From the IMG/VR virus record IMGVR_UViG_3300036784_000146, positions 1-64,000 of that record: a DNA stretch of 64,000 nt; one strand, given 5' to 3'. The DNA comes from a virus (Duplodnaviria > Caudoviricetes). The notes under the pieces were generated by a model. It was given only the letters and a program-made list of their open reading frames with translations. It was not told where the DNA came from and made no database searches. Of the stretch, positions 12,912-55,900 are shown piece after piece; the first letter of the stretch is position 1; every line of letters begins with the position of its first letter. Both the position numbers and the translations under genes were made by a program.

Positions 12912-13703
12912 ATGGGCCGTTGGTACGTGGGGAGGACCCCTGACTCGGACTCGGTGATCGTGCCGAAGTCCTTCGCCGACTCGCAGCTCGCGTCCGGATT
13001 ACCCAGCGTCACTTCAGTGCGTCAGGCCATTACGAACTCCATCAACACCCATGCCTTGGTCACCCCGACCTACGTCGACCAGAGCAACGGGCGGGTCGCC
13101 CACAAGACCGCCGTTGACACCGCTGATCAGGCTTACGTCCCGGTGGGTCAACTCAACCAGCCGGGTGGCGTGGCCGGGCTCGACTCCGGCGGGCAATTAT
13201 TCAGCGCTCAGATCCCGGCTGGCGTGCCCACCGAATACACCGCTGTCTCCTACGACGCGGCCACCAACGGCTTCATCTACATCAATCAGACAGAGACCGT
13301 CCTGACCAGCACCTTGCGCGAGCTGAGACTGGCTTCGATCACAGTCGAGGACCCCGGGTACCCATGGCGGCCCATTCCGCGCGCCGTCGTATTGGGTGGC
13401 AATCCCAACGGGACCAACCCGGGCACCCGGCTGTCGGGCACCAACAACTACGGGCTGCTTACCGTGATCCCGCCAGCAGGGGTTTCCGACCAGGTCTATG
13501 GCGCCGGGATCTGCACCGACAGCTTCTTCATGAACTTCTACGAATGCCTGCCGTACGCGACAGCCAACCAGACTCCGACGAGCGTTCCGGCCATCGTCGG
13601 CGGCTTGGAGCTGGATCTGTGTGGCTGCTGCTGGACCGGTTCGGGCTATCAGTTCAGTCCGGCCGGTTTGTCCTACTCGATCCTCGTAGCCCCGGCGATG
13701 TGA
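12912..13703 (+). CDS. Minor tail/structural protein
   Basis: YVD...GVAGLD motif shared with neighbours; GAGGAGG RBS. Confidence 0.75.
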   Translation: MGRWYVGRTPDSDSVIVPKSFADSQLASGLPSVTSVRQAITNSINTHALVTPTYVDQSNGRVAHKTAVDTADQAYVPVGQLNQPGGVAGLDSGGQLFSAQIPAGVPTEYTAVSYDAATNGFIYINQTETVLTSTLRELRLASITVEDPGYPWRPIPRAVVLGGNPNGTNPGTRLSGTNNYGLLTVIPPAGVSDQVYGAGICTDSFFMNFYECLPYATANQTPTSVPAIVGGLELDLCGCCWTGSGYQFSPAGLSYSILVAPAM

Positions 13704-13718
13704 GGGGAGGGCAGAACT

Positions 13719-14483
13719 TTGTCAGGTTTGCATGAAGTAGGGCGGACACCGGCCAATCCACAGGATGTCGTCACCAAATTGACGGTGGCAAATATGATCG
13801 CTGCCGCTTCTCCGAGCACCGTCTCGGTGAATACCGAGATCAACAGCGCGGCCGCGCTCAAGGCCGGGAAGCCCTACGTCGACACCCAGAACGCGACGTT
13901 CGAGAGCCCGGCCTATGTCAGCGCTCAGGACGCGCTCAACGTCCCGCTGGCTAGTGTCGGCCATCTCGGTGGCGTGGCGAGCCTGGATGCCACCGGCAAG
14001 ATCCCCCTGGCTCAGGTTCCTGCCGTCGGTACTGGATACGTGTTGGGTCCGTACGGTCCCACCGCCGGGTACGAGGCCACCACCGGCGCGACACCGGTCA
14101 AGATCGCCGATTGGGACATCGGGGTAGCGGCCCTGACGTTCGAGCCGGTGGTCTACTGCACCATCCTCGCCGGAGCAATCAACATGGGTCGCCCGGTCAT
14201 TGAGATCGGCATTTCCAACGGATCAACTTCCGTCTATGCCGATCAGACGATCATCGCGCGCGGCATGGGCCGCAGCTACTGGAACGACGGCCAGGTCATC
14301 AACGTGCGTCCCATCCCGGCCAACGACGCGCTGGGCCATTCCGGTGCCGACCCGACTGTGTACATCCCGACGTATTACGTCTTCTGCAGCGCATGGCTGT
14401 GGGATGCGGCCGGTGAGACCGTCACCGTGGCCGCCGGATCCGTTCTGTCCGGCGCCGTCTATTTATGGAGGACGGCCGAATAG
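13719..14483 (+). CDS. Minor tail/structural protein
   Basis: YVD...GVASLD.GKIP motif; paralogue of the two upstream genes. Confidence 0.7.
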   Translation: MSGLHEVGRTPANPQDVVTKLTVANMIAAASPSTVSVNTEINSAAALKAGKPYVDTQNATFESPAYVSAQDALNVPLASVGHLGGVASLDATGKIPLAQVPAVGTGYVLGPYGPTAGYEATTGATPVKIADWDIGVAALTFEPVVYCTILAGAINMGRPVIEIGISNGSTSVYADQTIIARGMGRSYWNDGQVINVRPIPANDALGHSGADPTVYIPTYYVFCSAWLWDAAGETVTVAAGSVLSGAVYLWRTAE

Positions 14484-14983
14484 TGAGCAGAAGTACTCTC
14501 GCGTTGACGCTTTCGCTTTTCGCGCATGTATTCCCTGGATCGACGTCGGACGCAGGTAGGGCAAATGCGTTGGCGACCGTTGTGCTTCAGCTCATCACCG
14601 CAGTTGTCACAGTGCGTTCTGCGGGCGTGATTGTGCATGCCGTTTCTGACGGAATCGAGAGCATTGTCGGTGCGAGTACCCCAGTACAAGTTTTCGATCA
14701 GGTTATGGCTTGGGTTGTCGTCTTTGTGCAGGCCCATCATGCCCAGAGGCCGTGGGCCGACAAATGCTTCCAGCATCATGAGATGGATGAAGCAGGTCTT
14801 CTTGCCGGGCAATATGACGTAGCGATAGCCCTTCCAGTTAGCGCTGGGGCTGAGGAGCTTGCCGGGAAAGAACCTGCCATTCGGCCATCTGTCAGTGATC
14901 AGAGTCCGGTCCAGCGACTGGACCAGGCCGTTGTCGCTGACCTCGTACCAATCTTCCCAGTTCACCACAGGGAGCCAATGCAC
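14459..14983 (-). CDS. Free-standing NUMOD4-HNH homing endonuclease
   Basis: WLPVVNWEDWYEVSDNG.VQS (NUMOD4); HKDDNPSHN...NLYWGT..DN (HNH); probable GTG start at 14983. Confidence 0.9.
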   Translation of the reverse strand: MHWLPVVNWEDWYEVSDNGLVQSLDRTLITDRWPNGRFFPGKLLSPSANWKGYRYVILPGKKTCFIHLMMLEAFVGPRPLGMMGLHKDDNPSHNLIENLYWGTRTDNALDSVRNGMHNHARRTHCDNCGDELKHNGRQRICPTCVRRRSREYMREKRKRQRESTSAHYSAVLHK

Positions 14984-14997
14984 CAGGGAAGTATACG

Positions 14998-15282
14998 ATG
15001 AGAATCTATCGCCAGGCCGAGACATTCGCGTTGCAGGCCGCTGAAGGGGAAGAGTGGCGACACCACTACAAGGACTACTTGGGCCCCCGCGAGATCACGT
15101 TTACTCCTGAGGAGCGGGACCAGCGCAGCCAGCTCAAGAAAGAGGTCCAGCGGCGCGAGCAAGCCGGGGAGATCGCTCCGCTGGACGCCACCAACCCTCA
15201 GTCGATGACCGACACCAACCAGGCCTACTCGGATCTGTTCTACGACCCCAACGACGGCATGGTTAGGAGACCAGCATCATGA
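14998..15282 (+). CDS. Small protein with MRIYRQAE leader
   Basis: N-terminus shared with the 15848 and 16453 proteins. Confidence 0.7.
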   Translation: MRIYRQAETFALQAAEGEEWRHHYKDYLGPREITFTPEERDQRSQLKKEVQRREQAGEIAPLDATNPQSMTDTNQAYSDLFYDPNDGMVRRPAS

Positions 15283-15851
15283 ACGGAGTTCCCGCCAGTC
15301 ATTTCACCTACCTCTGGCAAAACTTGGCCTACCCTCGGTTGGGGCTGGCCTACAACTGGGGCGGATCGCTGGATCCCAACGACCCAGGGGCGGGCACCGA
15401 CTGCTCGGGCTGGGTCAGCGCGGCGCTCTCGGCGCTGGTGCGTGGACCAGCTATGGAGTACTCCCGGCAATTCTGGACCGGCACCTTCGCGGGTATCACC
15501 CCAGGTCAGACCGGTCCCATCCAGGGAGTGGCCGACACCGCCAATCTGGTGTGCGTTTCTAGTCCAGCTGACGTGCCGCCGGACGCGGCGATGATCATCG
15601 CGATCCTGCAAACCGGCTCGGATCCCACCTATGCCGCTAACGCCCACATGATCTGCTCGGTGCGCGGCACGGTGCTGGAAATGGGCGGCGGCCCCAACGA
15701 TCTCCACACCGGCGGCGAGCCTGGCAGCACCGAGATCAACGACCCCGAGTTCAACCAGTTCCTCTACCTGCCCGGCCCGGTGATCCTCGACGCACCGGAC
15801 TGGACGGCTCCCTCCACGCTGGCCGCCATCGCGGGAGCCTTCGCTGCGTGA
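15279..15851 (+). CDS. NlpC/P60-like peptidoglycan peptidase (lysin A peptidase module)
   Basis: YNWGG...TDCSG catalytic Cys motif, AHM catalytic His, LEMGG. Confidence 0.8.
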   Translation: MNGVPASHFTYLWQNLAYPRLGLAYNWGGSLDPNDPGAGTDCSGWVSAALSALVRGPAMEYSRQFWTGTFAGITPGQTGPIQGVADTANLVCVSSPADVPPDAAMIIAILQTGSDPTYAANAHMICSVRGTVLEMGGGPNDLHTGGEPGSTEINDPEFNQFLYLPGPVILDAPDWTAPSTLAAIAGAFAA

Positions 15852-16456
15852 GGATCCTGAGGCAGGCCGAGATGTTCGGGTATCGGACGGGGATCGCCCT
15901 GGACGACCCGAATCTCACCGCGCCCACCAAGCTCTACCGTGGCGTGGCCGTCATGGGCGTGCCGCCCGAGCAGCAGCAGCGATGGAACGATGCGCTCGAC
16001 TACAGCAATTGGGACGGCGACAAGGCCAGCCTGGGTAAGCACCTGCAGGTCGGTCCCGAGCTGATCAAGCATTTGCAGGAGCGCCAAGGCGGTGTCGGTC
16101 GGCACTGGACCACCAACCCGGCCCGGGCCTACGACTTCGCCGGACGCAGCATGGAGAACCGCAACCTCGACAACCCCGACACCCATGCGGGCTTCCCGGC
16201 GGTGTTGGAGATGAACTGGGACGGCACGGGCCTGGACATGAGCGACAGGGGCATGAACAGCGGCAGCCACAACTTCGACGTCGACGACGAGCGTGTCCTA
16301 CAGCAGGGCCATCCGGTTAACATCAGCGGCGTCAAGGTCGCCGAGCCCGACCTGGGCGGCTGGACCGACGTGCTCAACCCGTCGCCGGAGGATCGCAGCT
16401 TCGACGACTTCAAGCACCTACACCAACCCAACTACGGACACCCGGGGGTGATATGA
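15848..16456 (+). CDS. ADP-ribosyltransferase-like protein with MRILRQAE leader
   Basis: KLYRG / GRHWTTN / DDERVL pattern; clear paralogue of the domain in 10212-11600. Confidence 0.65.
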   Translation: MRILRQAEMFGYRTGIALDDPNLTAPTKLYRGVAVMGVPPEQQQRWNDALDYSNWDGDKASLGKHLQVGPELIKHLQERQGGVGRHWTTNPARAYDFAGRSMENRNLDNPDTHAGFPAVLEMNWDGTGLDMSDRGMNSGSHNFDVDDERVLQQGHPVNISGVKVAEPDLGGWTDVLNPSPEDRSFDDFKHLHQPNYGHPGVI

Positions 16457-17679
16457 GGATCCTCTCTCAGCGCGAGCAGTATGCCTACCGCATCCTGGGG
16501 TTCACCGACGACGAGTACCGCCAGCATGTCGAGAACATCGAGAAAGCTTTGGACGAGCAGCGGCGAATGGGACGCGACTCGCGCAGCATCCATGGCATCC
16601 AGCGGCGCGGAGGCGGCTTCTCCTGGTCACCCAAGCGCAAGAAGGCCCAGAACCAGCTGATCAGGGAGATGTACGCCCAGCGGAGTCAGGGCGTCCCGCA
16701 GGAAGGCCTGGGCATGCTGATGGGCGGTCTGGGCGGCTCCGGCAAGGGCACGATCTTGAGGAACCCCCAGGGCGGCCTGGAAGGCAACCGCTACATGACG
16801 GTCAACTCCGACGACATCAAGGAGGAGATGGCTCGCCGGGGCATGATCCCCCATATTCCGGGGCTCTCGCCGATGGAGTCGGTCGCCATGGTCCACGAGG
16901 AGTCCTCTGAGCTGGCCCGACGGTTGGCCCAGCTGGCCTACAAAGACCGGCGCAACGTATTATGGGACATGACCATGGGGTCGGACAGCTCGACCAAAGA
17001 GCACATCGACAACATGCGCAAGCACGGTTACGGCCAGGTCGATGCTGCGTTCGTCGACGCCGACGCGCCGTCGGCACGCCAGCGGGTCTACGACCGGCAC
17101 CGCCGGGGCGAGACGGCTTACCGTGAGACCGGCCAGGGCTTCGGCGGCCGCTACGTCGTGCAGGCGGCCTCCAAGGCCAACGAGCCCACCCCGGGTTCGG
17201 GGAAACGCTCGAAGAACGCCGAGGTCTTCGAGCGCCACCTGCCGCACTTCGACAACACGGTGAACTTCGACGTCACCGGCCCGGGCGGAGCCCCCGTGGT
17301 GACGCAGACGACCGGCCCGCGCTGGCACGGGCACCCGCTGTCGGCAGGTGGGTCCACCGCAATCGACAACATCGTGGCAAGGAGACGAAGGATGATGGCC
17401 GCTGAAGAGGAGCCGGGCATCCAGGGAACCGTCAAGGAGCTGCTCGACGTCTACGAGCAGGGGCAGATCTCCTACGAGGACCTGGTCTTAGGTATCGCGG
17501 CGGTCGGTCACTTCGAGACCGTCAGCCGTACCCACGAGGAGTCTTACCAGCGGGCCGAGGACGGTCCCGACCCCAACAGCTTCGCCCACGTGGAGACGGC
17601 TGAGTTCAACGGGGTACTCACACCAGAGCAGGTTGAGCAAATAGCCGCAGCGATCGAAGAAACTAGCGATGGAGGTTAA
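16453..17679 (+). CDS. Zeta-toxin family P-loop kinase with MRILSQRE leader
   Basis: GGLGGSGKGT Walker A, NSDDIKE, HEES, NVLWDMT, R..R...GRYV. Confidence 0.85.
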   Translation: MRILSQREQYAYRILGFTDDEYRQHVENIEKALDEQRRMGRDSRSIHGIQRRGGGFSWSPKRKKAQNQLIREMYAQRSQGVPQEGLGMLMGGLGGSGKGTILRNPQGGLEGNRYMTVNSDDIKEEMARRGMIPHIPGLSPMESVAMVHEESSELARRLAQLAYKDRRNVLWDMTMGSDSSTKEHIDNMRKHGYGQVDAAFVDADAPSARQRVYDRHRRGETAYRETGQGFGGRYVVQAASKANEPTPGSGKRSKNAEVFERHLPHFDNTVNFDVTGPGGAPVVTQTTGPRWHGHPLSAGGSTAIDNIVARRRRMMAAEEEPGIQGTVKELLDVYEQGQISYEDLVLGIAAVGHFETVSRTHEESYQRAEDGPDPNSFAHVETAEFNGVLTPEQVEQIAAAIEETSDGG

Positions 17680-17682
17680 CGG

Positions 17683-17838
17683 GTGGTAATCCTTGGAGCA
17701 ATTTTGCTGATCCTGGGACTCGTGCTCGGTATCCAGATCCTCTGGATCATCGGCGCGATCCTGTTGGTGTTGGGCCTAGTTGGCGGCGGTTTCGGCTACG
17801 CCGGGCGCCCGATCTACGGGCGTAGACACTGGTACTGA
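17683..17838 (+). CDS. Small two-TM actinobacterial-type membrane protein (DUF6131-like)
   Basis: MVILGAILLILG...GRPIYGRRHWY; GGAGG RBS; below the ORF-track size cutoff. Confidence 0.7.
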   Translation: MVILGAILLILGLVLGIQILWIIGAILLVLGLVGGGFGYAGRPIYGRRHWY

Positions 17839-17895
17839 TCCTTCGACCTGTAGCGGAAGCCTTCTCGACCTGTCTAGGGTGAGGAGGCTTCTGCT

Positions 17896-18582
17896 ATGAC
17901 GCTCGTAACTATCGATGCCGTGGCCACAGGCCAGGTTATCGCCGGACCCAACCCCAACGTCAACGGGGGCTGGAATCACCCTTCGGGGGCAAACGCCGGG
18001 GTCATCCTGGTGGGCTTTCAATACAACACCACGGCGCCCATTGCCAAGACCATTACGCGCACCATCACCGCCGGGGGTCATCCCCTGGTTCGCCTCAAGC
18101 CCTTGCAAGGGGTAAACCGAGGCGGCAAGGGCTGGGGTGCCCCCAAGTCCGGCCGGGTCGAGGTCTGGGGCGGTGTGGGGGCGGCGGCCGCCGGGGGAGC
18201 CGTCGTGGTGAATTTGGGCTATAGCCCGCTCCCTGGGGGACCTCCCACCATCAACTTCACTCAGTTCAGCGGCGTCTCGCTGACCTATAACGGCTGCAAT
18301 ACGCTACCCGATCCGGCGTTGAACAAGGGCTGTGACGAGCGCAGCGGCTGCGGTCGGATAATCTCGGTGCCCCTTTCAAACTTCATGGACGCGTTGGCGG
18401 TGGTTTTCGTCGGCAGCGATTCCGCCATCCCCGTAAATCCTCCACACGCCACCACCCGCTTCAAGGACGCCAACTCCCAGCTGTGGGTCGGTGACCACCA
18501 GGGTCCGGGCACCATCCGGATGGGGAATACAGCTCCCGGGGGCAAGTGGGGATCGGCGACGGTCAACCTCATGCCGATCTGA
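17896..18582 (+). CDS. Putative structural/fibre-associated beta protein
   Basis: Beta/Gly-rich; late-type motif and GAGGAGG upstream. Confidence 0.6.
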   Translation: MTLVTIDAVATGQVIAGPNPNVNGGWNHPSGANAGVILVGFQYNTTAPIAKTITRTITAGGHPLVRLKPLQGVNRGGKGWGAPKSGRVEVWGGVGAAAAGGAVVVNLGYSPLPGGPPTINFTQFSGVSLTYNGCNTLPDPALNKGCDERSGCGRIISVPLSNFMDALAVVFVGSDSAIPVNPPHATTRFKDANSQLWVGDHQGPGTIRMGNTAPGGKWGSATVNLMPI

Positions 18583-19418
18583 TGACGCTCTACTACCCTG
18601 ACTGTTCCAATAACAACTGGGGCAACGAGAACTGGACCCAGCAGGGCCAGGACAATTTGATGAGCTTCTTGTCTCAGCTGGTCGGCCAGGGCTTTGCGGG
18701 CATGTGTCACAAGATGAGTCAGGACAACTCCTACATCGACCCCTACGGCGCGATCTGTCAGACCTGGTGCGCACAGAACAACGTGCCGTTCATCGGCTAC
18801 CACTACGTGGGCACCTCTGACGCAGGTAGCCAGGCCGCCAACTGGAAAGCTGCAGGTGGGGGCGTCAACGCCATGTTCGACTGGGAGGCAGGGTCGGGCA
18901 ACCTGGACGAGTTCTGGGCCTGCGTCAACGCGTTCAACAACGCCGGAGTCAACGTTCAGCTGGCGTATGACCCGCGCTGGTATCTGGAAGGGGCTGGATC
19001 GGGCGCGGGCACCGACATCTCCAATTTCGCCGCCAACGGCATCCTGCTGGTCAGCTCGGCCTACCCGCTGGGCTCTCAAGTCGGTTATGCCTCCGATCTC
19101 TACGCCCAGTGCGGCGGGGACACAGGCCAGGGCTGGTCTCCCTACGACGGGGGCCCACCCCCGGCAGCCTGGCAATTTACCAGCTCGGCGAACATCGCGG
19201 GCTTCAGTGGCGTGGATTGCAACGCTTACCTGGGGGCTGACATCAATGTTCTCTTTGGTGCTGTCGCTGCTCCTCCCCCTGTTACGCCTCCACCGGTGGT
19301 TACACCGCCACCGACGCCGGTGCCACCGGTGGTTATCTCGACCATCCCCGACCTCTCCCAGGTCGGAGACCAGCTCTTCACCGCGACATCCGCCCTATCA
19401 GCCCAGTTCGGAGTGTGA
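18582..19418 (+). CDS. GH25-like muramidase (lysin A glycosidase module)
   Basis: PDCSNNN start, GYHY, MFDWE, WQFTS...VDCN; Pro-rich tail. Confidence 0.8.
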   Translation: MTLYYPDCSNNNWGNENWTQQGQDNLMSFLSQLVGQGFAGMCHKMSQDNSYIDPYGAICQTWCAQNNVPFIGYHYVGTSDAGSQAANWKAAGGGVNAMFDWEAGSGNLDEFWACVNAFNNAGVNVQLAYDPRWYLEGAGSGAGTDISNFAANGILLVSSAYPLGSQVGYASDLYAQCGGDTGQGWSPYDGGPPPAAWQFTSSANIAGFSGVDCNAYLGADINVLFGAVAAPPPVTPPPVVTPPPTPVPPVVISTIPDLSQVGDQLFTATSALSAQFGV

Positions 19419-19419
19419 G

Positions 19420-19800
19420 ATGACTGCACCAGGCAACACGACTGATCCGGTTGCGTTCTTCCAGGAGATGATCCAGGAGTTGAGTGCCTCTGGCTCAACT
19501 CCATTGACCGCCAAGACCGATACCGTCCCGGCCCCCAACCTGACGCTGCGTGGTGCGATCGGGGCCATCTTGTGGATCACCAACGCCGGGGTCGACATGA
19601 AGGGCACCGCCGGGCCGTCCGAGCGTCCCTTCCCTCCCGGCACGCCCGACACGATCCTGGGCCACATCCTCTCGCTGCGGGCCGAGCAGCTGCAGACCCA
19701 GTCCCTGGTGTCGGCACTGATCACCGCGCTCGTCCAGGCCAAAATCATCGCGCCGGTCGATCAGGTCGGCATCCTCAACGCGGTAAGGACTCAGTTCTGA
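19420..19800 (+). CDS. Lysin-associated small protein (LysA C-terminal-like)
   Basis: Lies between the muramidase and holin; DTILGHILSLRAE helix. Confidence 0.5.
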   Translation: MTAPGNTTDPVAFFQEMIQELSASGSTPLTAKTDTVPAPNLTLRGAIGAILWITNAGVDMKGTAGPSERPFPPGTPDTILGHILSLRAEQLQTQSLVSALITALVQAKIIAPVDQVGILNAVRTQF

Positions 19801-20519
19801 TGACCGGTTTCATCGCCCCGTGGTCCCCGAATTTCACCAACGACATCAACGACGCCATCATCGCCGTGGACAGCACCATCAACTCGGTGCTCCCCGGCGT
19901 GCTTCCGTCGATCGTGCCGACACCGGCACCGGCCCCCTCTCCCGACCCCGGACCAGCCCCGACTCCGGATCCTTATCCCGCTCCCTATCCCGCTCCTGCT
20001 CCTTACCCCGCCCCTGCTCCCACTCCGGTCCCTGCGCCCGCTCCCGTCCCGGTGCCGACATCTGCTCCGGGCACCGGGACGTTGAGCGACTTGGAAGCCT
20101 CGGCCAAAGCGGCCTTAGAGCAGGCGTGGCCGACCATCCTGCCCGCGATCCAGGCCGACGCCATGGCCTACGCGCAGGCCTATCTACAGCAGGTGCTGTC
20201 GGGCAACGTCACCCCGACGATCCCGAACGTCACCTACAACGGCCAGAGCCTGACCCAGTCGGCGGCTAAGGGCCATGCGTGGCGCACCTTCCTGCTGGGG
20301 ATGGGCACCAGCGCCATCACCGCCGTGCTGTCGGCAGTCGGACAGCAGACCAACTTGGACTTCTTCTCGAAGTCCGGCTGGATCGCCACCGGCACGATCG
20401 CGGTGGCAACCCTGGTCCAGACTGTGGCCAGCTACGTTACCCGCTTACAGGTGACGCCCCAGTATGAGAAGCAGATGATCGCGGCATCACCGTCGACGCT
20501 GCTGCAGCTCCACAAGTAA
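19800..20519 (+). CDS. Holin-like membrane protein with Pro-rich N-terminal extension
   Basis: AWRTFLLG followed by two TM helices and SYV; PAP/PYP repeats; in lysis context. Confidence 0.65.
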   Translation: MTGFIAPWSPNFTNDINDAIIAVDSTINSVLPGVLPSIVPTPAPAPSPDPGPAPTPDPYPAPYPAPAPYPAPAPTPVPAPAPVPVPTSAPGTGTLSDLEASAKAALEQAWPTILPAIQADAMAYAQAYLQQVLSGNVTPTIPNVTYNGQSLTQSAAKGHAWRTFLLGMGTSAITAVLSAVGQQTNLDFFSKSGWIATGTIAVATLVQTVASYVTRLQVTPQYEKQMIAASPSTLLQLHK

Positions 20520-20541
20520 CCACCGAAAGGGAGACACAACC

Positions 20542-20757
20542 ATGTCCTTCAGCCTCGCAGATCTCAAGAACGAACTAGACACCATCATCAACGGTGCTAC
20601 CAACACCGTGGACCTCGCCGACAAGACTGCCCAGGCGGTCGGCAAATACGGCGAGTTCATCCCCGTGGTGGGGCCCGAAGTCAAGATCGCCGTGGACGCG
20701 CTCAACGGCCTGGATGCAGCACTGCACACGGTCAAAAGCGCGCTCGGTCTTCTCTAA
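20542..20757 (+). CDS. Small helical hypothetical protein
   Basis: GGGAGACACAACC-ATG start. Confidence 0.7.
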   Translation: MSFSLADLKNELDTIINGATNTVDLADKTAQAVGKYGEFIPVVGPEVKIAVDALNGLDAALHTVKSALGLL

Positions 20758-20827
20758 GCGCTGAGGGGGAACCATTCCGTTCCACCCAAACGCCCAGAAC
20801 AGGCTGATCCAACAGGCTTTCAGCCCG

Positions 20828-23014
20828 ATGGACCTGTTCACCCAGTCGCTGGCCAAGCCAGCGCCATGGGACTCGATCGTCGACTTCATCACGCACCCGA
20901 GCTATTGCGGTCGACGGTTGTACCCCAGGCAGCAGACCGCGTACCGGTTGATCTACCTGGAAACCGACCAGATGACGGCCTACGACCTGGACGTCATAGA
21001 AGAGTGGCGCCAGGGCTTCCTGCGCCGTCGCGACGTCTTCGGGGTGCAGCCCGACATCTGGGAGCGTGTCCAGTACCTCAAGGAGCACGGTTACCGGCGC
21101 TTCCCGCACATTCAGTTCGTGCTGGGCCGCCGTGGTTCCAAGGGTCTGATGGGCGGCGGTCTGGGCGCCGAGCAGATCGCTTACTTCTTCAGCCTCGACG
21201 ACTGGCAGGCCCATTACGACATAGATAAGGGCCAGAACGGTGTGCTGGCCGTAGTGGCCACCAATCAGAGCCAGGCTCAGCGCTTCCAGTTCGCCGACGT
21301 CCGGCGCACCGTCGAGCGCTGCAAGTATCTGCAGCCCCATATCGCGACGTCCAAGGACCACTTCTTCTCGATCCGCACCCCGGCCGACATCCGCTACATC
21401 GCCGAGCTGAAGGCGGCCAAGGTCCACGTCGAGCACGAGATCGCCAGTCTCACAGCGGTGGCCCTGTCGTCCAGCTCGTCGGCCGGTCGTGGTGGTGTGG
21501 GCTTCGCCAACTTCTATGACGAGATGGCGCACATGGTGCTGGGCACCGGCTCGGTGAAGTCCGGCGAGGAGATCTACAACGCGTGGCAGCCCAGCCTCGA
21601 CCAGTTCGCCAAGGACGGCCTGACGGTGGTTCCCAGCTCGCCGTTCACCAAGATCGGCGTCTTCTTCAAGCTCTACCAGGATGGCCGCGTCTGGATGCCC
21701 AACTATCGGGGCGAGATGGTCGAGCAGACCGAGTTCTCGCTGGGTATCGATGCCGAGGAGGAGATCAACAAGGTCGCCGACCCTGAGATGCTGATCCTGC
21801 AACTGCCCAGCTGGGGGCTCTACGAGGACTGGGAGCGCGGGCCCGAGCTGATCGGCCGCGTGATCAAGCGCCCCATCACCTACAAGCCCGAAGGCGACAA
21901 GCCCGAGAACGTTCGTATGCGGCGGTTGGAGATCAAGAATCCCGACAAGTTCAAGGTCGAGCGTCGTGGTCAGTTCGCCGAGGTCGAAGGTGCCTACCTG
22001 GATCCGCTGGCCGTGGAGGCCATGTTCAAGACACCGGACTGGCGCCCCAAGCTGGAAGCGCAGTCGCGCGGGTACCTGGTCCATCCCTACCGGATTCACT
22101 GCGACCCGTCGCGTACCAACGCCAACTTCGCGTTGGCGATCGGGCACACCGAGATCGCACCGTGCGATAAGTGCGGGGCCAGTCCCGAGCACGCCGAGCG
22201 TTACCACCCCTGCATGGCTTGCCTACAGCGCCGCGAGGAGCTTCCCGGCATGCACTGGCCGCATGTCATCTTCGACCTGCTGCACGTGTGGCGTCCCGGC
22301 GACAGCCAGCCCGACGAGGACGGCCGCCGCAAGATCGATTACATCCAGGTCATGAACGACATCATGGGCCTACTGGATCGGTTCCCGTCGACCAAGAAGC
22401 TCTCCTTCGACCAGTACGACTCCGCGTTGGGTATCGCTCAGCTGCGCAAGAAGTACTCTCCGCGCATCCAGATCGGCGAGGTGCTGTTCACCGAGAAGGA
22501 CAACCAGCGCCGCATGGAGCGCTTCAAGAGCGCGCTCAACCTGGGCTGGATGCACTCCTACCGCGACCGCTTCTACGACGAGGAGGCGGGCGGCTCGCTG
22601 CTGGAAATGGAGATGAAGTTCCTCGCCGAGCGCCAGGGCAAGGTGGTCAAGCAGGAGATCGGTCCGGTCACCACAAAGGACCTGTTCGACTCCGTCTCGG
22701 TGGTGGCCACTGAGCTGCTCAAGGACTCCCTGGACCGCTACAGCGGTAAGGACCTGGCCCGGCCATCGGTCGGCTCTACCGAGGTCGCTGGGCTGCGCTC
22801 AGGCCGCGAGTTCCAGCGGGTCGGTGGCACCAGCAGCGTGCACGCCATGTTGGCCGAGCAGCTGGCCGGTAGCAGCACCCCGGCCCGGGACATGATCGGC
22901 GTCAACCGCGCCGAGCGGTCCCGGCGCACGGCCTATCAGCCCAGCCGGACCGAATCTATTCGGGCCCGCGCGATGCCGACCCAGATGCCGAGAGCCGGTA
23001 GGCGCGGGCTATGA
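20828..23014 (+). CDS. terL: Terminase large subunit
   Basis: LYPRQ adenine-binding motif, GRRGSKG Walker A, FANFYDE Walker B, RNase H-like HCDPS, FDQY, KDLFD. Confidence 0.9.
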   Translation: MDLFTQSLAKPAPWDSIVDFITHPSYCGRRLYPRQQTAYRLIYLETDQMTAYDLDVIEEWRQGFLRRRDVFGVQPDIWERVQYLKEHGYRRFPHIQFVLGRRGSKGLMGGGLGAEQIAYFFSLDDWQAHYDIDKGQNGVLAVVATNQSQAQRFQFADVRRTVERCKYLQPHIATSKDHFFSIRTPADIRYIAELKAAKVHVEHEIASLTAVALSSSSSAGRGGVGFANFYDEMAHMVLGTGSVKSGEEIYNAWQPSLDQFAKDGLTVVPSSPFTKIGVFFKLYQDGRVWMPNYRGEMVEQTEFSLGIDAEEEINKVADPEMLILQLPSWGLYEDWERGPELIGRVIKRPITYKPEGDKPENVRMRRLEIKNPDKFKVERRGQFAEVEGAYLDPLAVEAMFKTPDWRPKLEAQSRGYLVHPYRIHCDPSRTNANFALAIGHTEIAPCDKCGASPEHAERYHPCMACLQRREELPGMHWPHVIFDLLHVWRPGDSQPDEDGRRKIDYIQVMNDIMGLLDRFPSTKKLSFDQYDSALGIAQLRKKYSPRIQIGEVLFTEKDNQRRMERFKSALNLGWMHSYRDRFYDEEAGGSLLEMEMKFLAERQGKVVKQEIGPVTTKDLFDSVSVVATELLKDSLDRYSGKDLARPSVGSTEVAGLRSGREFQRVGGTSSVHAMLAEQLAGSSTPARDMIGVNRAERSRRTAYQPSRTESIRARAMPTQMPRAGRRGL

Positions 23015-44372: not shown

Positions 44373-44732
44373 ATGATTGGCACGGTGTGCCAAGGCTGCA
44401 AGCAGCTCGCCGAGATCGCCCACACCGATAGCCTCGGCCTCGGCTACTGCGCTCGGTGCGCCAAGGACATCCCAATCCAAAGCGAGACACTGGGTTTGGA
44501 GTACCTGATAGCCAACCCCCCGTTCTTCCCCGGCGATCGAGTAGAGTGCCGGACCGGCGGAGAGATTTTCGACGGAGTCGGAACCGTCCAGGAGATGAGT
44601 TTCGATTTCGAGCACGGGGGAACTTTGATCTATCCTGCCTTCCGCGTGACCATCGACGAACCTGCCAACGAGCACAGTCCGGTCGAAGGCTGGTGGACCG
44701 AGGTCTGCTTGAAGAAGGTGGGTAAGCCATGA
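44373..44732 (+). CDS. Hypothetical protein (Zn finger plus SH3-like)
   Basis: Two CxxC pairs; FFPGDRVEC. Confidence 0.65.
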   Translation: MIGTVCQGCKQLAEIAHTDSLGLGYCARCAKDIPIQSETLGLEYLIANPPFFPGDRVECRTGGEIFDGVGTVQEMSFDFEHGGTLIYPAFRVTIDEPANEHSPVEGWWTEVCLKKVGKP

Positions 44733-47305
44733 CGGCGCCGGGCGGGCGGTTCTGGACCGGCAACCCCGATGCCGAGATGCGCCGTCTGCGGGCGGCCGGG
44801 GCCACGCTCCCCAACTCCGCGCCGAGGGCCCGGCTGGAAGCCAAACGCTTCGGCGATCAGATACGCAGCGGCTCCCTGGTGGACAACACCAACCGGATGA
44901 TGGGTGCCGACTTCCGGCGCCGCCGGGCCTCAGGCCTGCGTACCGGTGCCAACGTCCAGATGGCGATGCCCAAGTTCCGCACCCCGCTGGGCTCCCTGGA
45001 AGACAAGAACGTCCCGTTCAACGTCGAGGACCGCAAGGAGCTGCAGGAATGCCGCCGGTGGGCGCGGGCCTTCTATATCACCCACGACCTGGTCCCGCTG
45101 CTGATCGACATCTACGCGCGCTTCCCGCTGGTTGGCTTGGAGTTCAAGAGCACCGACCCGCTGATCGAGAAGTTCTACACCCAGATGTTCCTCAACGACC
45201 TGGACTACGAGAACTTCCTGCCCGACAGCCTGGGCCGCGAGTACTACGTCGCCGGTGAGGTCACCACGCTGGCTCATTTCAACGAGTCGCTGGGCATCTG
45301 GTCGTCGGAGGAGGTCCTCAACCCCGACTTCGTGCGGGTGTCCAAGGGCCTGTTCGTCGAGGAGGAACGTGTCCAGCTGATGGTCAAGGACCTCGTCGAC
45401 GGCCTACGCGACGGGCCGCAGGGGATGGGCCCCGACGAGGAGACCCGCAGCGAGCGCGAGGAGCGCCTCTACGAGTACCGCATGCTGGTGCAGAACTACC
45501 CCGAGATCATCCGCGCCGCCCAGATGGAAGACGGCCTGGACATCAGCCCGGCCAAGTGGAGCCGCATCGTCAACAAGAGCGCCCCGTGGCATGAGTACGG
45601 CACGCCGCCGCTGTTGCGCAGCTTCCGCACCCTGATGATGGAGGAGTCCCTCAACGCTGCTCAGGACGCCGTGGCGGACCGTTTGTACTCCCCGATGATC
45701 GTGGCCACCCTGGGCCTGGAAAACATGGGCGACGGGCTGCCCTGGATCCCGATGCAGTCCGACCTCGACGACCTGCGCGACGACATGCAGAACGCGTTCA
45801 TGGCCGACTTCAAGCTCGTCTGCCACCACATGGGCCTCAACGTGGAGAACGTCTTCGGCCGCGAGTCGGTCCCCCGATTCGATCAGGACTACGAGCGCAT
45901 CGACCTCAAGCTGATGCAGGCCTGGGGCATCGGCTCGGCACTGATCATGGGCGGCACCGGCGCGGCCGGTACCTACGCCAGCTCGGCACTGAACCGCGAG
46001 GTGTGCGAGCTGCTGATGAAGAGCTACCAGAAGAAGGTCATCCGCCACATCGTGAAGCGGATGGAAGTCATTGCCGAGGCCCAGCAGCACTACGCCTACG
46101 AGAAGAAGGGCGGCTACCGGCGGCCCCTCTACAAGGAGGTCGTGCAGTTCAACGAGGAGACCGGCGAGGAAGAGATCGTCCGCGTTCCGCAGCTGCTGAT
46201 TCCCAAGGTTGAGTTCGCCTCGCTCAACTTGCGCGACGAGACCCAAGAGCGTTCGTTCATGATGGAACTCAAGCAGGCCGGGGTGCCGATCAGCGACAAG
46301 AGCTTGGCGATCAACATCCCGATCGATTTCGAGCAAGAGCTGCCTCGCGGCGCCGACGAGACGGTCGACAAGCTGGTGGCCCAGGCCGAGGCGATGGGCA
46401 AGGCCCAGTCGATTATCGACCACAAGGACCTGCCGTACCCCGCCGAGCTGGCCCAGTACCTGACTCAGACCCTGATCCTGCGCCAGCAGCTGGCCCAGAC
46501 CAAGATGATGGAGGGCCAGGAGGAGATGCAGGAGACCGCCCAGCAGCAGCAGACTCCCGCCGGTGCGATGGGTGCACTGCCCGGCGTCCCGCCAGCTCCC
46601 CCGCCGCAGCCTGAGGGCGGCGAAGGCGAGGATGGCCAGTTGCCGCCTCCGGGCCCGATGCCCGTCCCGATGCTGCCCGGCGACGGCGGTCCGCCCATGG
46701 GCCCCGGTGGTCCGATGCCCATGCCGCCCCAGATGGCCTCTCCGGAGATGCAGACCGAGATGGGGCTGGTGGCCGCCAAGGGGCAGAAGCGCACGCCCTT
46801 CCAGGTCAATGCCCCACATGCCGGTGGCCCCGGAATCCTGCCGCCCGACATGGAGTTCGGCAACGAGAACGAGTTCGGAGGCGGACAGCCTTCCGAGGTC
46901 GTCGAGCCCCCGCGCAACCGCACTCGTCCCGAGGAGAGCGACGAGATGCGGGCCAACTCCCCGCGCAAGGCCACCCGGGTGGGCCGTAGCGGGATCCGCA
47001 AGAAGGCCGAGTTCGAGATGGACCCCAGCTCCTACGGCCACCGCAACCGGGTCAGCGAGAGCGCGGTGGAGAAGGCCGTCCGGCGCCGGGAGGCCCAGGC
47101 CAACCCGCCCCGGGTCGACGAGCTGATCCAGGACCCCAAGTTCTACGCCCTTACCGGCATCGGCGGTTACCAGGCCCAGATCCAAGGCGACTTCCCGCAC
47201 ATCATGGCCGGTGACGACGACGACAGCACCAAGGAGTCGATCCAGATTCTTGAGGACGCGTTACTGCAGTACGAGCGGCAAACAGGAGTGAGGCCGATAT
47301 GGTGA
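44729..47305 (+). CDS. Portal protein
   Basis: IDIYARFP, GEV, EEVLNPD, YGTPPLLR, AQDAVADRLYSP, YASSALN; position at the head of the capsid module; long Pro-rich C-terminus. Confidence 0.85.
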   Translation: MTAPGGRFWTGNPDAEMRRLRAAGATLPNSAPRARLEAKRFGDQIRSGSLVDNTNRMMGADFRRRRASGLRTGANVQMAMPKFRTPLGSLEDKNVPFNVEDRKELQECRRWARAFYITHDLVPLLIDIYARFPLVGLEFKSTDPLIEKFYTQMFLNDLDYENFLPDSLGREYYVAGEVTTLAHFNESLGIWSSEEVLNPDFVRVSKGLFVEEERVQLMVKDLVDGLRDGPQGMGPDEETRSEREERLYEYRMLVQNYPEIIRAAQMEDGLDISPAKWSRIVNKSAPWHEYGTPPLLRSFRTLMMEESLNAAQDAVADRLYSPMIVATLGLENMGDGLPWIPMQSDLDDLRDDMQNAFMADFKLVCHHMGLNVENVFGRESVPRFDQDYERIDLKLMQAWGIGSALIMGGTGAAGTYASSALNREVCELLMKSYQKKVIRHIVKRMEVIAEAQQHYAYEKKGGYRRPLYKEVVQFNEETGEEEIVRVPQLLIPKVEFASLNLRDETQERSFMMELKQAGVPISDKSLAINIPIDFEQELPRGADETVDKLVAQAEAMGKAQSIIDHKDLPYPAELAQYLTQTLILRQQLAQTKMMEGQEEMQETAQQQQTPAGAMGALPGVPPAPPPQPEGGEGEDGQLPPPGPMPVPMLPGDGGPPMGPGGPMPMPPQMASPEMQTEMGLVAAKGQKRTPFQVNAPHAGGPGILPPDMEFGNENEFGGGQPSEVVEPPRNRTRPEESDEMRANSPRKATRVGRSGIRKKAEFEMDPSSYGHRNRVSESAVEKAVRRREAQANPPRVDELIQDPKFYALTGIGGYQAQIQGDFPHIMAGDDDDSTKESIQILEDALLQYERQTGVRPIW

Positions 47306-51800: not shown

Positions 51801-52924
51801 TCTCCAACGAGACCAGCTCGATGCAGCCGATGGAGCCCAACGTTGGTGGCGGGGGGCCGGGCGACGTCAACAACGCGCCTCCCATCATGAACGCTGGGGA
51901 CAACGTCTCGGGCGCTGAAGAGGACCCCACCGGCACGCTGGCCAGTCTGCTGCACTTCGCCGACGACGATGACCTCACTAGCGGTGACACCATGGGCGAT
52001 CCCGGCGGCGGCATGACCGATGGTGGCGGCAACTCGATGGGGATGGGTGGCGGCGACTCGATGGGTGGTGGTGGCGACTGGATGGGCACCCCTAGCGGTG
52101 GCCTCCACTATCCGGGTCTCGACACCGACTCGGGCGGCGTCAGGTTTGGACCTATGTCCCCGGATTCTTCTACCCCTTCGGCCACTCCGGGCCTTCCCGG
52201 TGGAGCCGGTGCCAGTGACTTCGTGCATCCGTCCGGTCCGGTCGGTGCCCCGGGCGACATGATCCATCCGGATAAGAGCGTGACTTACGCCAATCAGCAG
52301 CGTCCTTCGATCCGAGACAGCATCGCGAAGCGCAACCAGCACTGGCGGCACGGCTACGACTGGTCGAACGTGCCTCCCGGCTGGGGTGACGTCCCCAGCA
52401 ACCCCGACGACGACAGCGATCCGCTGCCCCCGTTGCCGGGCCAGAAAGAAGTCGAGAACCTGCTGCCCAACCAGATGCCCAAGATCCCCGGCATGGGTAA
52501 GGGCGGCCCCGGCGGTGCCGGTGGTGCAGCTGGCGAGGCCGGGATGGCCGAGGAGTTGCCGTTGGTGGCGGCCTCCATCGACCCGCGTTGGGACCAGTCC
52601 GACGTGGTGGCCCAATTCCAGCGGTCAGCCGGGGCGGCAGCCCTGCGTGGACGCGGCCAAGGTGGCCCGCCTCAATCCGACCCGCGCGCGCAGGCGATGT
52701 CCCAGTGGGGCGGGGCGCCGGGCGGCGTCACCCGCGCCGGTAGCCGTGGCAACTTCTCCGAGGGCGACATCGCCGGGGCGGCAGCTAGCTTCCTACACCG
52801 CACCGCCGGACGCACCTATTCACCGGCCGAGCAGGCCAGTCTGATGAACGAGGAGCCGGTCAACGGCCGGGGTGCGCGCAACCTCGGTGGTCTCGATCTC
52901 CAAGGGACCCACTACGTCCAATGA
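48848..52924 (+). CDS. Large acidic head-associated protein with SWIM-type Zn finger
   Basis: WHCGCDW...FCSH; many (R/K/H)xA-delimited segments; between portal and protease. Confidence 0.75.
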   Translation: MTMIHTAHGVGEVVETVTERGGRVSYKVKVGLNEVWVKAADARFAEGGPENLFSYQFTPDRHIDPTAEMYGASTPEKDFVVGNVFAMGSKGFSPMAPAKSVRDIKRPYPYDPTPQYPVDMFTDSTIQPGEYEIDPDKRLKPSQPSTQPPSPGPSPSLFATGAYSAIQDRPEIVLGSRPGSDEDYLIHEGFFAEAEELTDEQRGKRREDYPRQSRDPAADRPRLREHDEPVLPFDKVSPSGHTTHEMGKKSEPDWYSCPDCGAWHNPFRHMKNRRGPKPPRSDDAFQPAYKGASMRCAACEHDHQEHGMGYHEGEGEFENYQPPWERSAEGRHRAPPNEVDPFIDTLDRGALPELVRDPGNDQQVFMKRTPTPKPRGEHFAPGIMDRLRGRAAGVFDGIEFPTDMPEKFAYIPGPEDFTDSAQTALAAITRQAAILEGEYGLSPRVAVEMDLVEHDAHVREAAWRDVQRKAKRLRAEGRVHIKDSSPEHIVATVDGDTGTYDTIIVRGNVFDLGGQSVTSWHCGCDWGRWAFKRRLTYVGRFCSHAYATYQEMRSAHDLPGGTRSRTRSAGSHEFADPTDEADARLQYEQSGARPVAPGSDAYLHAPRPAGPPIPGWVGQSVEGGEPGRHRAAGVVEDYKKWLKENDQVPGVDSVADFVTLPQDDDEEAPLTEDEVAKLYDYAEGNLPESRERNYDVGYTFDPDEVYKTSREMLRTKPQSLTPDLQFVPEGEDEHLVDVTKDDRKTTGPGQIMHGNTDDEGGQEPGDGEIVHFASLQRLCDTEGLPYPVELTAFLQHYAEEQKVNNPTPGSPANPRPDAGEATRDLNKLRNLIQDPLSDSFGHMDERNDKVRDLVEELHDAGTAAENLVASRQFEAEGDFASPGGGTWADLPFAGSGPDPKDWYSSSADYVDEHERPNFTDVTDLPDGDILKYNDSDSPVSKPKEARYEHEGEEEDYGDEGPLEAPSDAPWGEKNPRWSPRHADLFSNETSSMQPMEPNVGGGGPGDVNNAPPIMNAGDNVSGAEEDPTGTLASLLHFADDDDLTSGDTMGDPGGGMTDGGGNSMGMGGGDSMGGGGDWMGTPSGGLHYPGLDTDSGGVRFGPMSPDSSTPSATPGLPGGAGASDFVHPSGPVGAPGDMIHPDKSVTYANQQRPSIRDSIAKRNQHWRHGYDWSNVPPGWGDVPSNPDDDSDPLPPLPGQKEVENLLPNQMPKIPGMGKGGPGGAGGAAGEAGMAEELPLVAASIDPRWDQSDVVAQFQRSAGAAALRGRGQGGPPQSDPRAQAMSQWGGAPGGVTRAGSRGNFSEGDIAGAAASFLHRTAGRTYSPAEQASLMNEEPVNGRGARNLGGLDLQGTHYVQ

Positions 52925-55900
52925 CTGTCGACCTGCGTGACCACGACGTAGAGCGCCGCTTCGTGCAAGCGCTCAAGCACAGCGGTGTTCCCGTCTCCAA
53001 CAAGGCCATGCCGTCGACCCGGCAGCTGCGCGCAACGTCGATTTTGGCCAACAGGCAGCACAAGGTTGTCGGGAAGATTGCGGCCGTCAAGACCAGCCGC
53101 AAGGCGGTCTACTCGATGGTGGAGCCCTTCGCCAAACACGGCACCGTCGTCAAGGACTTCGAGTTCGTTCCCGGGATGCTCTACACCAAGGTGCGGGCGA
53201 TCTCGGCGCGCATCAACCAGAACTACGACGCGTGGCCGTCTGGTCAGCTCAAGACCAGCTACCTCACCTTCTTGGGCAAGCCGATCTTCGTCAATCACGC
53301 CAACTTCGACCCCGATCGGGCACGGGGTCGGGTGGTGGCCGCGCGCTACATCGAGAACGGCCGGGACAAGTACGTCGAGACCGTGATGGAGGTCGACGCA
53401 CTCAACTTCCCCCGGCTGGCGGCCGAGATCCACAACGGCGGCCTGGACAGCGTGTCCATGGGCGTCGAGGCGGGCTTCACGATCTGCAGCTTCTGCGGCA
53501 ACAAGGCTACCGACGTGTTCGACATGTGCGACCACGTTAAGTTCCACAAGGGTAGTCACCTACCAGACCCACGCACCGGACAACCCAAGCTGGTGTACGA
53601 AGACTGTCACAAGCTAGGTTTCTTCGAGCTGAGCTACGTGTTCGACCCGGCCGACGAGACGGCGGTGGTCTCACAGGTAATCGTGGCCGACAAGCGTGTC
53701 GCCGACAACCAGTTCATCAAGCGCGAAGGTGCCCGGCCGATCGACCCCAGCCAGGAGGTCTTCGTCCACTACAACCGGCACGCCTTCAATCGGCAGAAGC
53801 GCACCGGCCAGCCTCAGGCCGACCTGTGGTCGATCCGCCAGGACGATCCGGAGACCAGAAAGCACGTGCGCGGTTACATCAACGACCTGCACTTGCGTGA
53901 TGCCCGCCTGCACGTCCAGCCCGGTGGCAGCCAGCTTTACAAGGACACCTACACCGATGATCGCGGCGAGGGTGATCGCACCGTGCACGCGGGCATCTAC
54001 GGGACGCTGGACAGCGGGCCTCCCCCGGAGGGCATGTCGATGTCGGTTCTGGGTTACAACCCCAAGACCGACTCCACCTTCGTCCACAAGGACACAGGAG
54101 AGCCCGTGCACGAGGCCGACCACATCCACGTCGACCCCGCTGGCAAGGTCTACGGCTACAAGGCCGACGGCTGGGGACGCACTGCACGCCGCAAGAAGGC
54201 CTGGGGTGAAACCGAAGCCCCCGAGGACATCGACACGCTGCGCGAGGACGACGACGACAGCGATGACGACTACGAGTTCGTCACCCCCTATCGACCCGAC
54301 GGTGCTGATGACATGCCGTTCGCGAACGAGATCGGCTCACCGCAGGAATTGCAAACCCCAGACTTCGACCAGACCAAGCGCCTCGACCGCGACCAAGAGG
54401 AAGAGGGCCTGGACTCCGACCGAAGGGTCGAGGACGTCGGAGAGGTCGGAGCCCCGTCCAACGGGACTCAAGCTCAGCCGAAAGCGGCAAGGAAACAAAG
54501 GAGGAAGGCGATGGCTCGCACCAAATACGCCGCTGAGGAGGACCGGGACGACGACCGTCTCCCCCCGTGGCTTCAGGATGACGACCAGGGTGGCGGCGAC
54601 GAAGGTGGCTTCCCCGACGATGGCGGCGATGGCGGTCCCCCGCCTCAGGGTCCGCCCGACGACGGCGGTGACTTCGGCGACGACGGCGGTGATGACCTCG
54701 AATCCCGCGTCGACCAGCTTGAGCAGGCTGTCGGCGAGCTGCAGGACGAGGTGGGCCCCGACGAAGACGACAGCATGGACGGGCCGCCTGCGCCCCCGCC
54801 GCCAGGTCCCCTTGGTCCTCCGCAGTTCGCCGCCCGTAACCGGCGTCAACAGCCTCGTCAGGCCACTCGGCGCACCGCCAAGGATGACGACGATTCGGAC
54901 GATGACGATGACGACGATTCGGACAAGGACGACAACAAGCCGCCGTGGCTCAAGGAGAAAGAATCTCGGCGTCGTACGCCCCAACGCCCTGTGAACGGGC
55001 GCTCCCCGCAAAAGAAGGGGAGAAAGGGCTCGCAGAAAGGAGCGCCGACCGTGGGAGCACCTCGTCTCTCTGAGCGCAGCAAGGTGGCCGCCTCTTCGCG
55101 TGCGCGCAACCGTCGCACCGCCGACGACAGCGGACACACCGACGGCGGCCCGTACGGCGAGAACACCCTCGGCGAGCAGGCCGAGACTTACATCCCGTCG
55201 GTGTACGGCGAGGGTGACGGCGTTCCGCCCGAAGAGCCCGTGGCCGCTCCGGCTGGCGACGAGTCCAAGGCGCCCAATAGCGAGAGCAACCTGGTGGCCA
55301 GGATCCACAAGCAGAAGGTGGCCTTGGAGCGTGACATCCAGACCTACATGCGGATGCAGGCCGGGCGTCGGACCGCTGAGGACTCCGGCGTGGTGCAGCC
55401 CACTACGGTCAACCCAGAGTTGAGCGGCACCGAGGACCAGTCCGTGCGCGGCGACGACTTCCAGGACGTCGGTCTGGATTACGGCAGCTCGGCCGAGACT
55501 CAGCCCAAGGACGCCAGTCGCCACTGGTTCGCTCAGTTCAACAACTGGTTGCGCCAGGTCACCGGCAAGAACTGGAACCAGCACACCTCCGGGCACCTGA
55601 CCCGGTATGCCGCCCATTGGGCGAAGGGGACCGGCGTTCCGCTGGATGCCATGTTCCCGACCCTGCAAACTGCGCTTCGCCAGGCGAAGAAGGGTGAGGC
55701 AAGGAGTAGTTCCATGAGACGTCGCGCCGAGGACGAGAAGCTGGAAGTAGCAGCTCCGGACGAGCGTGTCGACGTGGAGCGGCCGGTTTCCAACGAGACC
55801 GACGCGGACGCGCAAGCGTCACAGTTCGATCTGCACGATTTCGGCGACAATGCGGGGGATAACCTCGCCGATCCAGATATGGACGTCGACTCGCAGATCT

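Follow-up and report, generated by a model that had tools for sequence, protein, structure and literature searches.

What purpose is served by a short peptide that stands at the start of several otherwise unrelated phage proteins? The question is raised by the first 64,000 nucleotides (referred to here as the window; bases 1 to 64000) of the IMG/VR virus record IMGVR_UViG_3300036784_000146 (143,610 bp; estimated completeness, 96%; genome G000), in which three plus-strand open reading frames (ORFs), namely, ORF1 (14998 to 15282; 94 amino acids [aa]), ORF2 (15848 to 16456; 202 aa), and ORF3 (16453 to 17679; 408 aa), encode proteins that each begin with M-R-I-x-x-Q-x-E and carry an aromatic residue two positions after. 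A sequence-only reading of the window had pointed out this common start, had placed the end of the similarity near residue 15, and had suggested a portable capsid-targeting tag. The first two points were borne out (i.e., with the first 16 residues removed, BLASTP recovered no pair of the proteins; best E value, 2.9). The third stands in part: we are nearly certain that unrelated enzymes do share a portable tag at their N termini, and the support for a destination in the head is indirect. In our judgment, the tag is probably a bipartite propeptide for capsid loading and protease processing that acts like the capsid-targeting sequence (CTS) of phage T4; its loading, its cutting, and its receptor are elements that we infer.

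The nearest cultured relative of G000, a mycobacteriophage-like myovirus, is Mycobacterium phage Phrappuccino (cluster AA; 136 kb), and a mycobacterial host is presumed for G000 only because its nearest cultured relatives are Mycobacterium smegmatis phages. Searches of IMG/VR with the tag pattern and the capsid protein yielded further whole or partial genomes (G001, G003, G004, G008, G017, G018, and G021). The tag was found in Phrappuccino and in at least seven uncultured relatives. A near-identity DNA search of the phage collection with the region of the tagged ORFs gave zero matches.

The tag, ~15 residues long, consists of the initial M, zero to three residues, and then a consensus, which in 18 enzyme leaders reads R-I-[L/Q]-[R/K]-Q-[A/R]-E-x-[F/Y]-A-[Y/W]-R-x-A; its more general form is R-I-x-R-Q-[A/R]-E-x-[F/Y]-[A/G]-[Y/W]-R-x-A. 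It lies 0 to 4 codons past the start codon in 26 of 27 cases from nine genomes. When all six frames of the complete 143,610-bp sequence were scanned, the extended motif turned up solely at ORF starts on the plus strand (four places and a fifth variant, M-Q-V). When all N-terminal 12-mers of the genome were compared blindly with one another, the three best pairs were leader genes (BLOSUM scores, 46, 40, and 36), and the maxima of control comparisons shifted by 20 or 35 residues were 36 and 31, respectively. The first half of the leader, called here the docking half after its proposed role, is probably an amphipathic helix. Two types of secretion signal were considered and rejected: the leader has no hydrophobic core of the kind expected of a Sec/Tat signal, and the Y-x-x-x-E of ORF1, which recalls a type VII secretion motif, is not retained in the other leaders.

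The DNA upstream of the tagged genes is dissimilar, including the ribosome-site regions, and the arginine codons at conserved leader positions are drawn from both the CGN and the AGR sets (CGC, CGG, AGA, and AGG are all used). The varied codons and the unlike upstream DNA therefore point to selection on the peptide, not on the DNA or RNA. The same data bear on the idea that the leader has no sorting role and is instead a leftover of common ancestry, a recombination joint for swapping enzyme cassettes, or a translation-start context. In its favor, the bearers are grouped in variable islands of genes, ORF1 is directly adjoined by the gene for a homing-type HNH endonuclease, and the leaders of one genome tend to be alike (three of the four enzymes tagged in G008 have R-I-Q-R-Q), a tendency that is compatible with gene conversion. 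We nevertheless regard this idea as very unlikely, since codons vary freely at conserved residues, the ribosome-site regions differ, and the peptide has been retained between phages whose capsid proteins are ~65 to 75% identical; moreover, a joint would leave unexplained both the match to a motif of the head proteins and the presence of the leader on a conserved core protein (see below).

To what is the tag attached? The protein of ORF1, which has an ATG start, consists of the leader and a charged region for which neither Pfam nor PHROG contained a match; it has a partial homolog in G004 and is a candidate small internal protein. Its leader is encoded by the first 16 codons (14998 to 15045, plus strand) and combines the docking half R-I-Y-R-Q-A-E-T-F with an atypical second half (Q-A-A, not R-x-A). 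ORF2, with a GTG start that overlaps the upstream stop codon, encodes the leader (ending in Y-R-T-G) and a domain (residues ~27 to 175) that the sequence-only reading had taken to be like an ADP-ribosyltransferase (ART). A family search with ORF2 returned no family match, and the assignment draws on structure. In the AlphaFold model (predicted local distance difference test score [pLDDT], 63), the leader forms a separate helix (residues 2 to 18) off the ART-like core, and the top Foldseek matches are all ADP-ribosyltransferases (pertussis S1, Rhs TreX, cholera A1, and scabin), although they are weak (E values, 7e-3 to 0.1; template modeling scores, ~0.3 to 0.45) and come from a model of this pLDDT. 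R31, H-W-T-T (residues 86 to 89), and E148 are invariant across the homologs and may be compared with the R / S-T-S / E triad of the ART fold. The ART-like assignment is thus moderately supported, i.e., reasonable, not proven. The ORF2 orthologs P0003 to P0005 from a large protein collection retain the leader, and the linker behind it is deleted in P0005. ORF3 (ATG start) carries the leader, a Zeta-toxin-like P-loop kinase domain (residues 88 to 236), and an unassigned C-terminal third; the kinase had been recognized in the sequence-only reading, and the Pfam match agrees (Zeta_toxin, PF06414; E value, 4e-17). The Zeta domain also matches phrog_16619, annotated as "minor head protein" (1.6e-10), and ORF3 and the C-terminal domain of Phrappuccino gp57 share 35% identity. 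A PDB sequence search with ORF3 gave no match.

Three more bearers lie elsewhere in G000, bringing the number to six. The genes of two of them are mutually adjacent just beyond the end of the window. One (genome positions 64542 to 65261, plus strand; 239 aa) encodes a protein resembling NMNAT and cytidylyltransferases that has an H-x-G-H motif and a PF01467 match of 5e-4; its ortholog in G003 matches the same family above the cutoff (1.3e-5). With the G000 protein, tblastn against phages found no match, and a PDB sequence search found only a marginal match to NMNAT (E value, 0.55). The other (65261 to 66226, plus strand; 321 aa) starts with M-Q-V-L-R-Q-R-E and joins an ART-like N-terminal domain paralogous to ORF2 (E value, 5e-10) to a ParB-like domain (PHROG ParB families). 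The sixth bearer (70241 to 70504, plus strand; 87 aa) is a small protein with a looser copy of the tag, and its gene lies in the interval from the tail tube gene to the tail chaperone gene; the protein is predicted to be disordered, and a structure-atlas search gave no usable match. All six genes are on the same strand in late structural or lysis blocks, and beyond residue 16 only the two ART-like proteins are alike.

The cargo in relatives is similarly varied. Phrappuccino bears the tag on four proteins: gp57 (1,088 aa), in which the docking half diverges most; gp68; gp75, which is the small protein from the interval between the tube and chaperone genes; and gp195 (2,030 aa), which contains ART-like domains. 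Bearers in other relatives include a ParB-only protein in G001 and a weak phosphoribosyltransferase (PRTase)-like protein in G017. G008 bears the tag on three multi-GNAT proteins of 1,069 to 1,353 aa (PF00583, 3.3e-31) and on a 549-aa Zeta-like kinase (Zeta_toxin, 6.7e-10). The three giants of G008 are neighboring genes (L122:2576-17891), one with four GNAT stretches and two with weaker GNAT matches, and one of the latter two also carries a DnaJ-type zinc finger. Tagged enzymes were absent from Myrna (cluster C2) and from G016.

The relationship between tags and polypeptides is informative. In G003, whose capsid protein is 95% identical to that of G000, NMNAT and ART are fused in one 818-aa ORF (L117:7498-9954, minus strand) with extra domains between them and a single leader, the junction showing only A-Y-R-F-G, whereas in G000 the same enzymes are split into two genes, each with a full leader. 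Since there are two leaders if the enzymes are split and one if they are fused, it seems that every polypeptide made separately must carry a label, as would be anticipated for an address tag. The position of the genes may also be considered: tagged genes directly follow the capsid gene at loci L029, L030/L031, and L037 and in Phrappuccino, in which the gene for gp57 comes after that for the major head protein with only the 59-aa gp56 between them.

The ends of the enzyme leaders match an R-x-A motif of the scaffold, portal, and capsid proteins. In G000, the scaffold is part of a 1,120-aa protease-scaffold fusion (52921 to 56283, plus strand), in which a protease domain (residues ~60 to 262) is accompanied by acidic/basic linker and conserved blocks. 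Residues 102 to 255 match phrog_18299 (head maturation protease; 1.1e-18), the Ser and His of the domain are invariant in eight homologs, and a fold search ranked T4 gp21 first, albeit weakly (Z score, 4.7; root mean square deviation, 3.5 over 110 residues; model pLDDT, 59). The nonprotease part contains 16 R-x-A motifs, compared with 7.1 ± 2.5 in shuffled sequences (3 of 2,000 shuffles reached 16). Among nine aligned homologs of the fusion, R-x-A is retained at islands within otherwise variable linkers, with [W/Y]-G-E following [R/K]-x-A at one, D-x-S-G following R-x-A at another, and an acidic run and L-E-V-A-A-P following R-R-x-A at a third; a further island lies close to the C terminus. 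In addition, a conserved scaffold block at residue ~750 reads G-E-Q-A-E-T-Y-I in G000, with the same core in G003 and G004, and thereby repeats the leader core Q-A-E-T-[F/Y]; this could represent mimicry of the scaffold by the leader or another site for the protease. The protease domain also contains a Cys/His cluster (C-x-x-C ... C-x-H-x-x-x-H) at residues ~189 to 211, an insertion that is unusual among prohead proteases; this zinc-finger-like stretch was all that a PDB sequence search with the domain matched.

The motif recurs in the major capsid protein (56896 to 57909, plus strand; phrog_2522, 5e-126), with R-x-A at residues ~15 to 20 in six of nine aligned homologs (to ~36 in G001 and G018, whose ORFs start farther upstream); the capsid proteins of G000, G003, and G004 have R-x-G-A/S in its place. 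The portal protein (44729 to 47305, plus strand; phrog_2833, E value of 0) carries R-R-R-A and then S-G-L at residue ~65, and the portals of relatives carry R-G-R-T-A and then S-G-L near the N terminus. As called, the G000 portal ORF does not contain the first ~15 residues that hold R-G-R-T-A in the relatives; its start may be misset, or the N-terminal segment may have been lost. In Phrappuccino, [R/K/G/Q/M]-R-T-A-[A/S/D/E/G] occurs mainly in the portal protein, gp52, the scaffold gp53, gp57, gp75, and gp195. The strict leader-end pattern is otherwise seldom encountered (0.06 per 1,000 aa).

We propose the following scheme. The first half of the tag (R-I-x-R-Q-[A/R]-E-x-[F/Y]) would dock on one of the particle's conserved core components, for which our first guess is the scaffold portion of the protease-scaffold fusion, and the second half ([A/G]-[Y/W]-R-x-A) would present a site at which the head maturation protease could free the enzyme inside the prohead. 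Once freed, the enzymes would stay inside the head until they entered the host together with the DNA, where they would serve as early effectors; these would include the ART-like protein, the ParB-like nuclease, and the Zeta-like and NMNAT-like enzymes and, in relatives, GNAT acetyltransferases and a PRTase-like protein. The indirect support for a head destination comes from the R-x-A match, the position of genes after the capsid gene, the one-tag-per-polypeptide pattern, and domains of the polyvalent type (see below). Complex predictions pairing the first 40 residues of the NMNAT-like protein with the protease domain and with the C-terminal part of the scaffold were run with no controls and say nothing either way (score, 0.00 in both runs).

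The sequence-only reading had invoked the targeting peptide of the T4 internal proteins, and the T4 facts that it cited agree with the literature: the CTS of IPI to IPIII and the Alt propeptides is bipartite, with targeting residues followed by processing residues (Mullaney and Black 1996; reviewed in PMC9026906). Like the CTS, the present tag is a short and probably bipartite N-terminal peptide common to unrelated, fast-evolving proteins, its cargo includes a putative ADP-ribosyltransferase, and a prohead protease and a scaffolding core are encoded by the phage. The differences are also considerable. The tag has no sequence homology to the CTS but only a loose resemblance (M, a basic residue, Q, and E), and the sets of proteins are unrelated. 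It comprises 15 residues as opposed to 10; the likely cut is at R-x-A (or possibly after Q-A-E) as opposed to L/I-x-E in T4; the protease and the scaffold form one polypeptide; the presumed host is actinobacterial; and the cargo extends to 1,000 to 2,000 aa. Furthermore, half of the tag also occurs on a conserved tail-block protein. It looks like a tag that works as the CTS does but is not a CTS by descent.

Several observations weigh against a capsid-loading propeptide. The assignment of the protease consists of one PHROG match and a weak fold match. ORF1 (Q-A-A) and ORF3 (R-I-L-G) lack the canonical R-x-A. The cut site is ambiguous, because Q-A-E-T-[F/Y] in the tag would also suit a protease that cuts after Glu; the capsid proteins retain S-[D/S]-E before an aromatic residue, and with a cut after Glu the removed piece could be the eight residues that the sequence-only reading had singled out. 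Proteins of 1,000 to 2,000 aa are bulky cargo. Phages of cluster C1 have an ART/ParB homolog without a recognizable tag (gp78 of Cali). A literature search for proteomic data on the virions of Phrappuccino and cluster C found none. Finally, the docking half heads the small disordered protein encoded in the tube-chaperone interval in all ten genomes examined, including those of Myrna and G016, and in Phrappuccino and G018 this protein also carries an R-T-A site. This protein may be the ancestral bearer of the tag. Given the docking half on a conserved tail-block protein, the receptor could be a tail component, and the destination could be the tail lumen.

This last observation favors the view that the tag loads the tail and not the head, i.e., that it docks on the tail assembly chaperone, the tape measure protein, or the tube complex and that the cargo occupies the tube lumen and leaves it before the DNA does. 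Apart from the small protein, no bearer of the docking half is universally conserved; in addition, the cluster at 14998 to 17679 of G000 and the Zeta gene of G008 adjoin tail fiber genes, and the Phrappuccino tape measure protein has one Q-R-T-A-E match. Against it, cargo of 1,000 to 2,000 aa (G008 and Phrappuccino gp195) is hard to fit beside the tape measure protein in the lumen, the end of the tag matches scaffold, portal, and capsid motifs rather than tail proteins, and several tagged genes come directly after the capsid gene. No gene for a loading ATPase of the Pvc15 type was noticed near the tagged or tail genes, where no dedicated search for one was run. We consider tail loading improbable.

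If the tag docks on a particle component, which protein is the receptor? A phyletic profile showed no gene specific to the tag-bearing genomes, and in the absence of a tag-specific accessory gene, the receptor should be one of the 39 core proteins. The same profile speaks against the notion that the tag is a recognition peptide for a partner outside the particle, such as a multisubstrate modifying enzyme or chaperone or a host hub such as the DNA sliding clamp. Peptides of the Q-A-D-M-F type are clamp-binding motifs, which the leader Q-A-E-M-F resembles; the core Q-x-x-x-[F/Y] fits the loose clamp-binding pattern, and the phage encodes its own DnaE-type polymerase. However, most copies have R or Q where the clamp motif needs hydrophobic residues. 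The clamp motif proper is a Q-L-[S/D]-L-F-like pentapeptide that is hydrophobic at positions 2 and 4, and the 18 aligned cargo leaders do not conform to it: A, R, S, or T occupies the second position and Q, T, A, S, M, V, or E the fourth, a single M and a single V being the only hydrophobic residues. Conservation also reaches four residues upstream and six residues downstream of the pentapeptide, the position is strictly N terminal, and neither the one-tag-per-polypeptide rule nor the R-x-A link to head proteins is predicted by such a role, to which we accordingly give little credence.

A capsid-loading propeptide may be compared with other delivery systems as well. ART, ParB, GNAT, PRTase, and kinase domains have been described on capsid-delivered polyvalent or MuF-type effectors (Iyer et al. 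2017; PMC5512222). The tagged proteins draw on this set of domains and would likewise act early, as effectors that arrive along with the DNA, and fused forms occur in the relatives (Phrappuccino gp57 and gp195, the 818-aa protein of G003, and the GNAT giants of G008). In contrast to polyvalent proteins, the bearers of G000 mostly consist of a single domain (two at most) and would be linked to the particle by a short tag, not by covalent fusion to a MuF or other head domain; domain searches found no match to a MuF domain on them.

The Photorhabdus virulence cassettes and other extracellular contractile injection systems use N-terminal signals of ~50 residues that load effectors into the tube lumen and need a dedicated ATPase. 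Such signals resemble the tag in being N terminal, disordered or helical, and transferable among diverse effectors of a machine with a contractile tail, but the tag has 15 residues and its motif links point to the head. Encapsulin cargo peptides, which are usually C terminal, bind the shell protein directly and are not cleaved. In that case too a short peptide sends enzymes inside an HK97-fold shell, whereas the tag described here is N terminal and is proposed to be cleaved.

In its most far-reaching form, the proposed scheme would make the leader a scaffold-mimicking, self-removing address label with which a clade of actinobacterial myoviruses could load any enzyme and inject it before gene expression. 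We put this form forward tentatively and hold it to be rather doubtful as a whole. Within it, the cargo would include a set that acts on NAD and on nucleotides (NMNAT-like, ART-like, PRTase-like, and Zeta-like kinase proteins). To our knowledge, capsid-targeting tags have been established experimentally essentially only for T4 and its relatives, and our literature search found no paper describing the present tag. If the tag does load the capsid, then tag-plus-protease loading of injected enzymes arose more than once, and the sets of injected effectors, which are likely counterdefense and host-takeover factors, could be read from the first 15 residues of the proteins. The proposal can be tested directly, because Phrappuccino, which encodes four tagged proteins, has been cultured (host, Mycobacterium smegmatis). 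If the proposal holds, Phrappuccino would be a programmable protein delivery vehicle for mycobacteria, in which chosen proteins could be packaged for laboratory delivery experiments.

The neighborhood of the three ORFs has other features. Between ORF1 and ORF2 lies a gene for an NlpC/P60-type peptidoglycan hydrolase (15279 to 15851, plus strand; 190 aa; phrog_6707 endolysin, 2.6e-19), whose N terminus was read and does not carry the leader; it is a context gene, not a bearer. The homing-type HNH/NUMOD4 endonuclease gene (14459 to 15025, minus strand) is located between the tail fiber genes and ORF1 and, as called, shares 28 bases at its 5' end with the beginning of ORF1; the endonuclease might promote exchange of the leader-flanked cassette. 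A scan for promoters and terminators at 13500 to 21000 gave nothing above shuffled sequences. Directly after the Zeta-like gene is a gene for a 51-aa protein with two membrane helices (17683 to 17838; DUF6131, phrog_3158), and small ORFs resembling it adjoin the tail tube genes of G001 and G016.

The extended motif was also scanned for in a collection of genome contigs. The seven matches equal the chance expectation, and none is actinobacterial; they hence offer no clue to the host. One contig (L159; CAIPNE010000714.1; 149,613 bp), binned with an uncultured gammaproteobacterium, encodes a full N-terminal copy of the tag that is preceded by R-R-T-A. This match looks like a true family member, and the contig is probably a misbinned phage genome because its size is similar to that of the phages described here.

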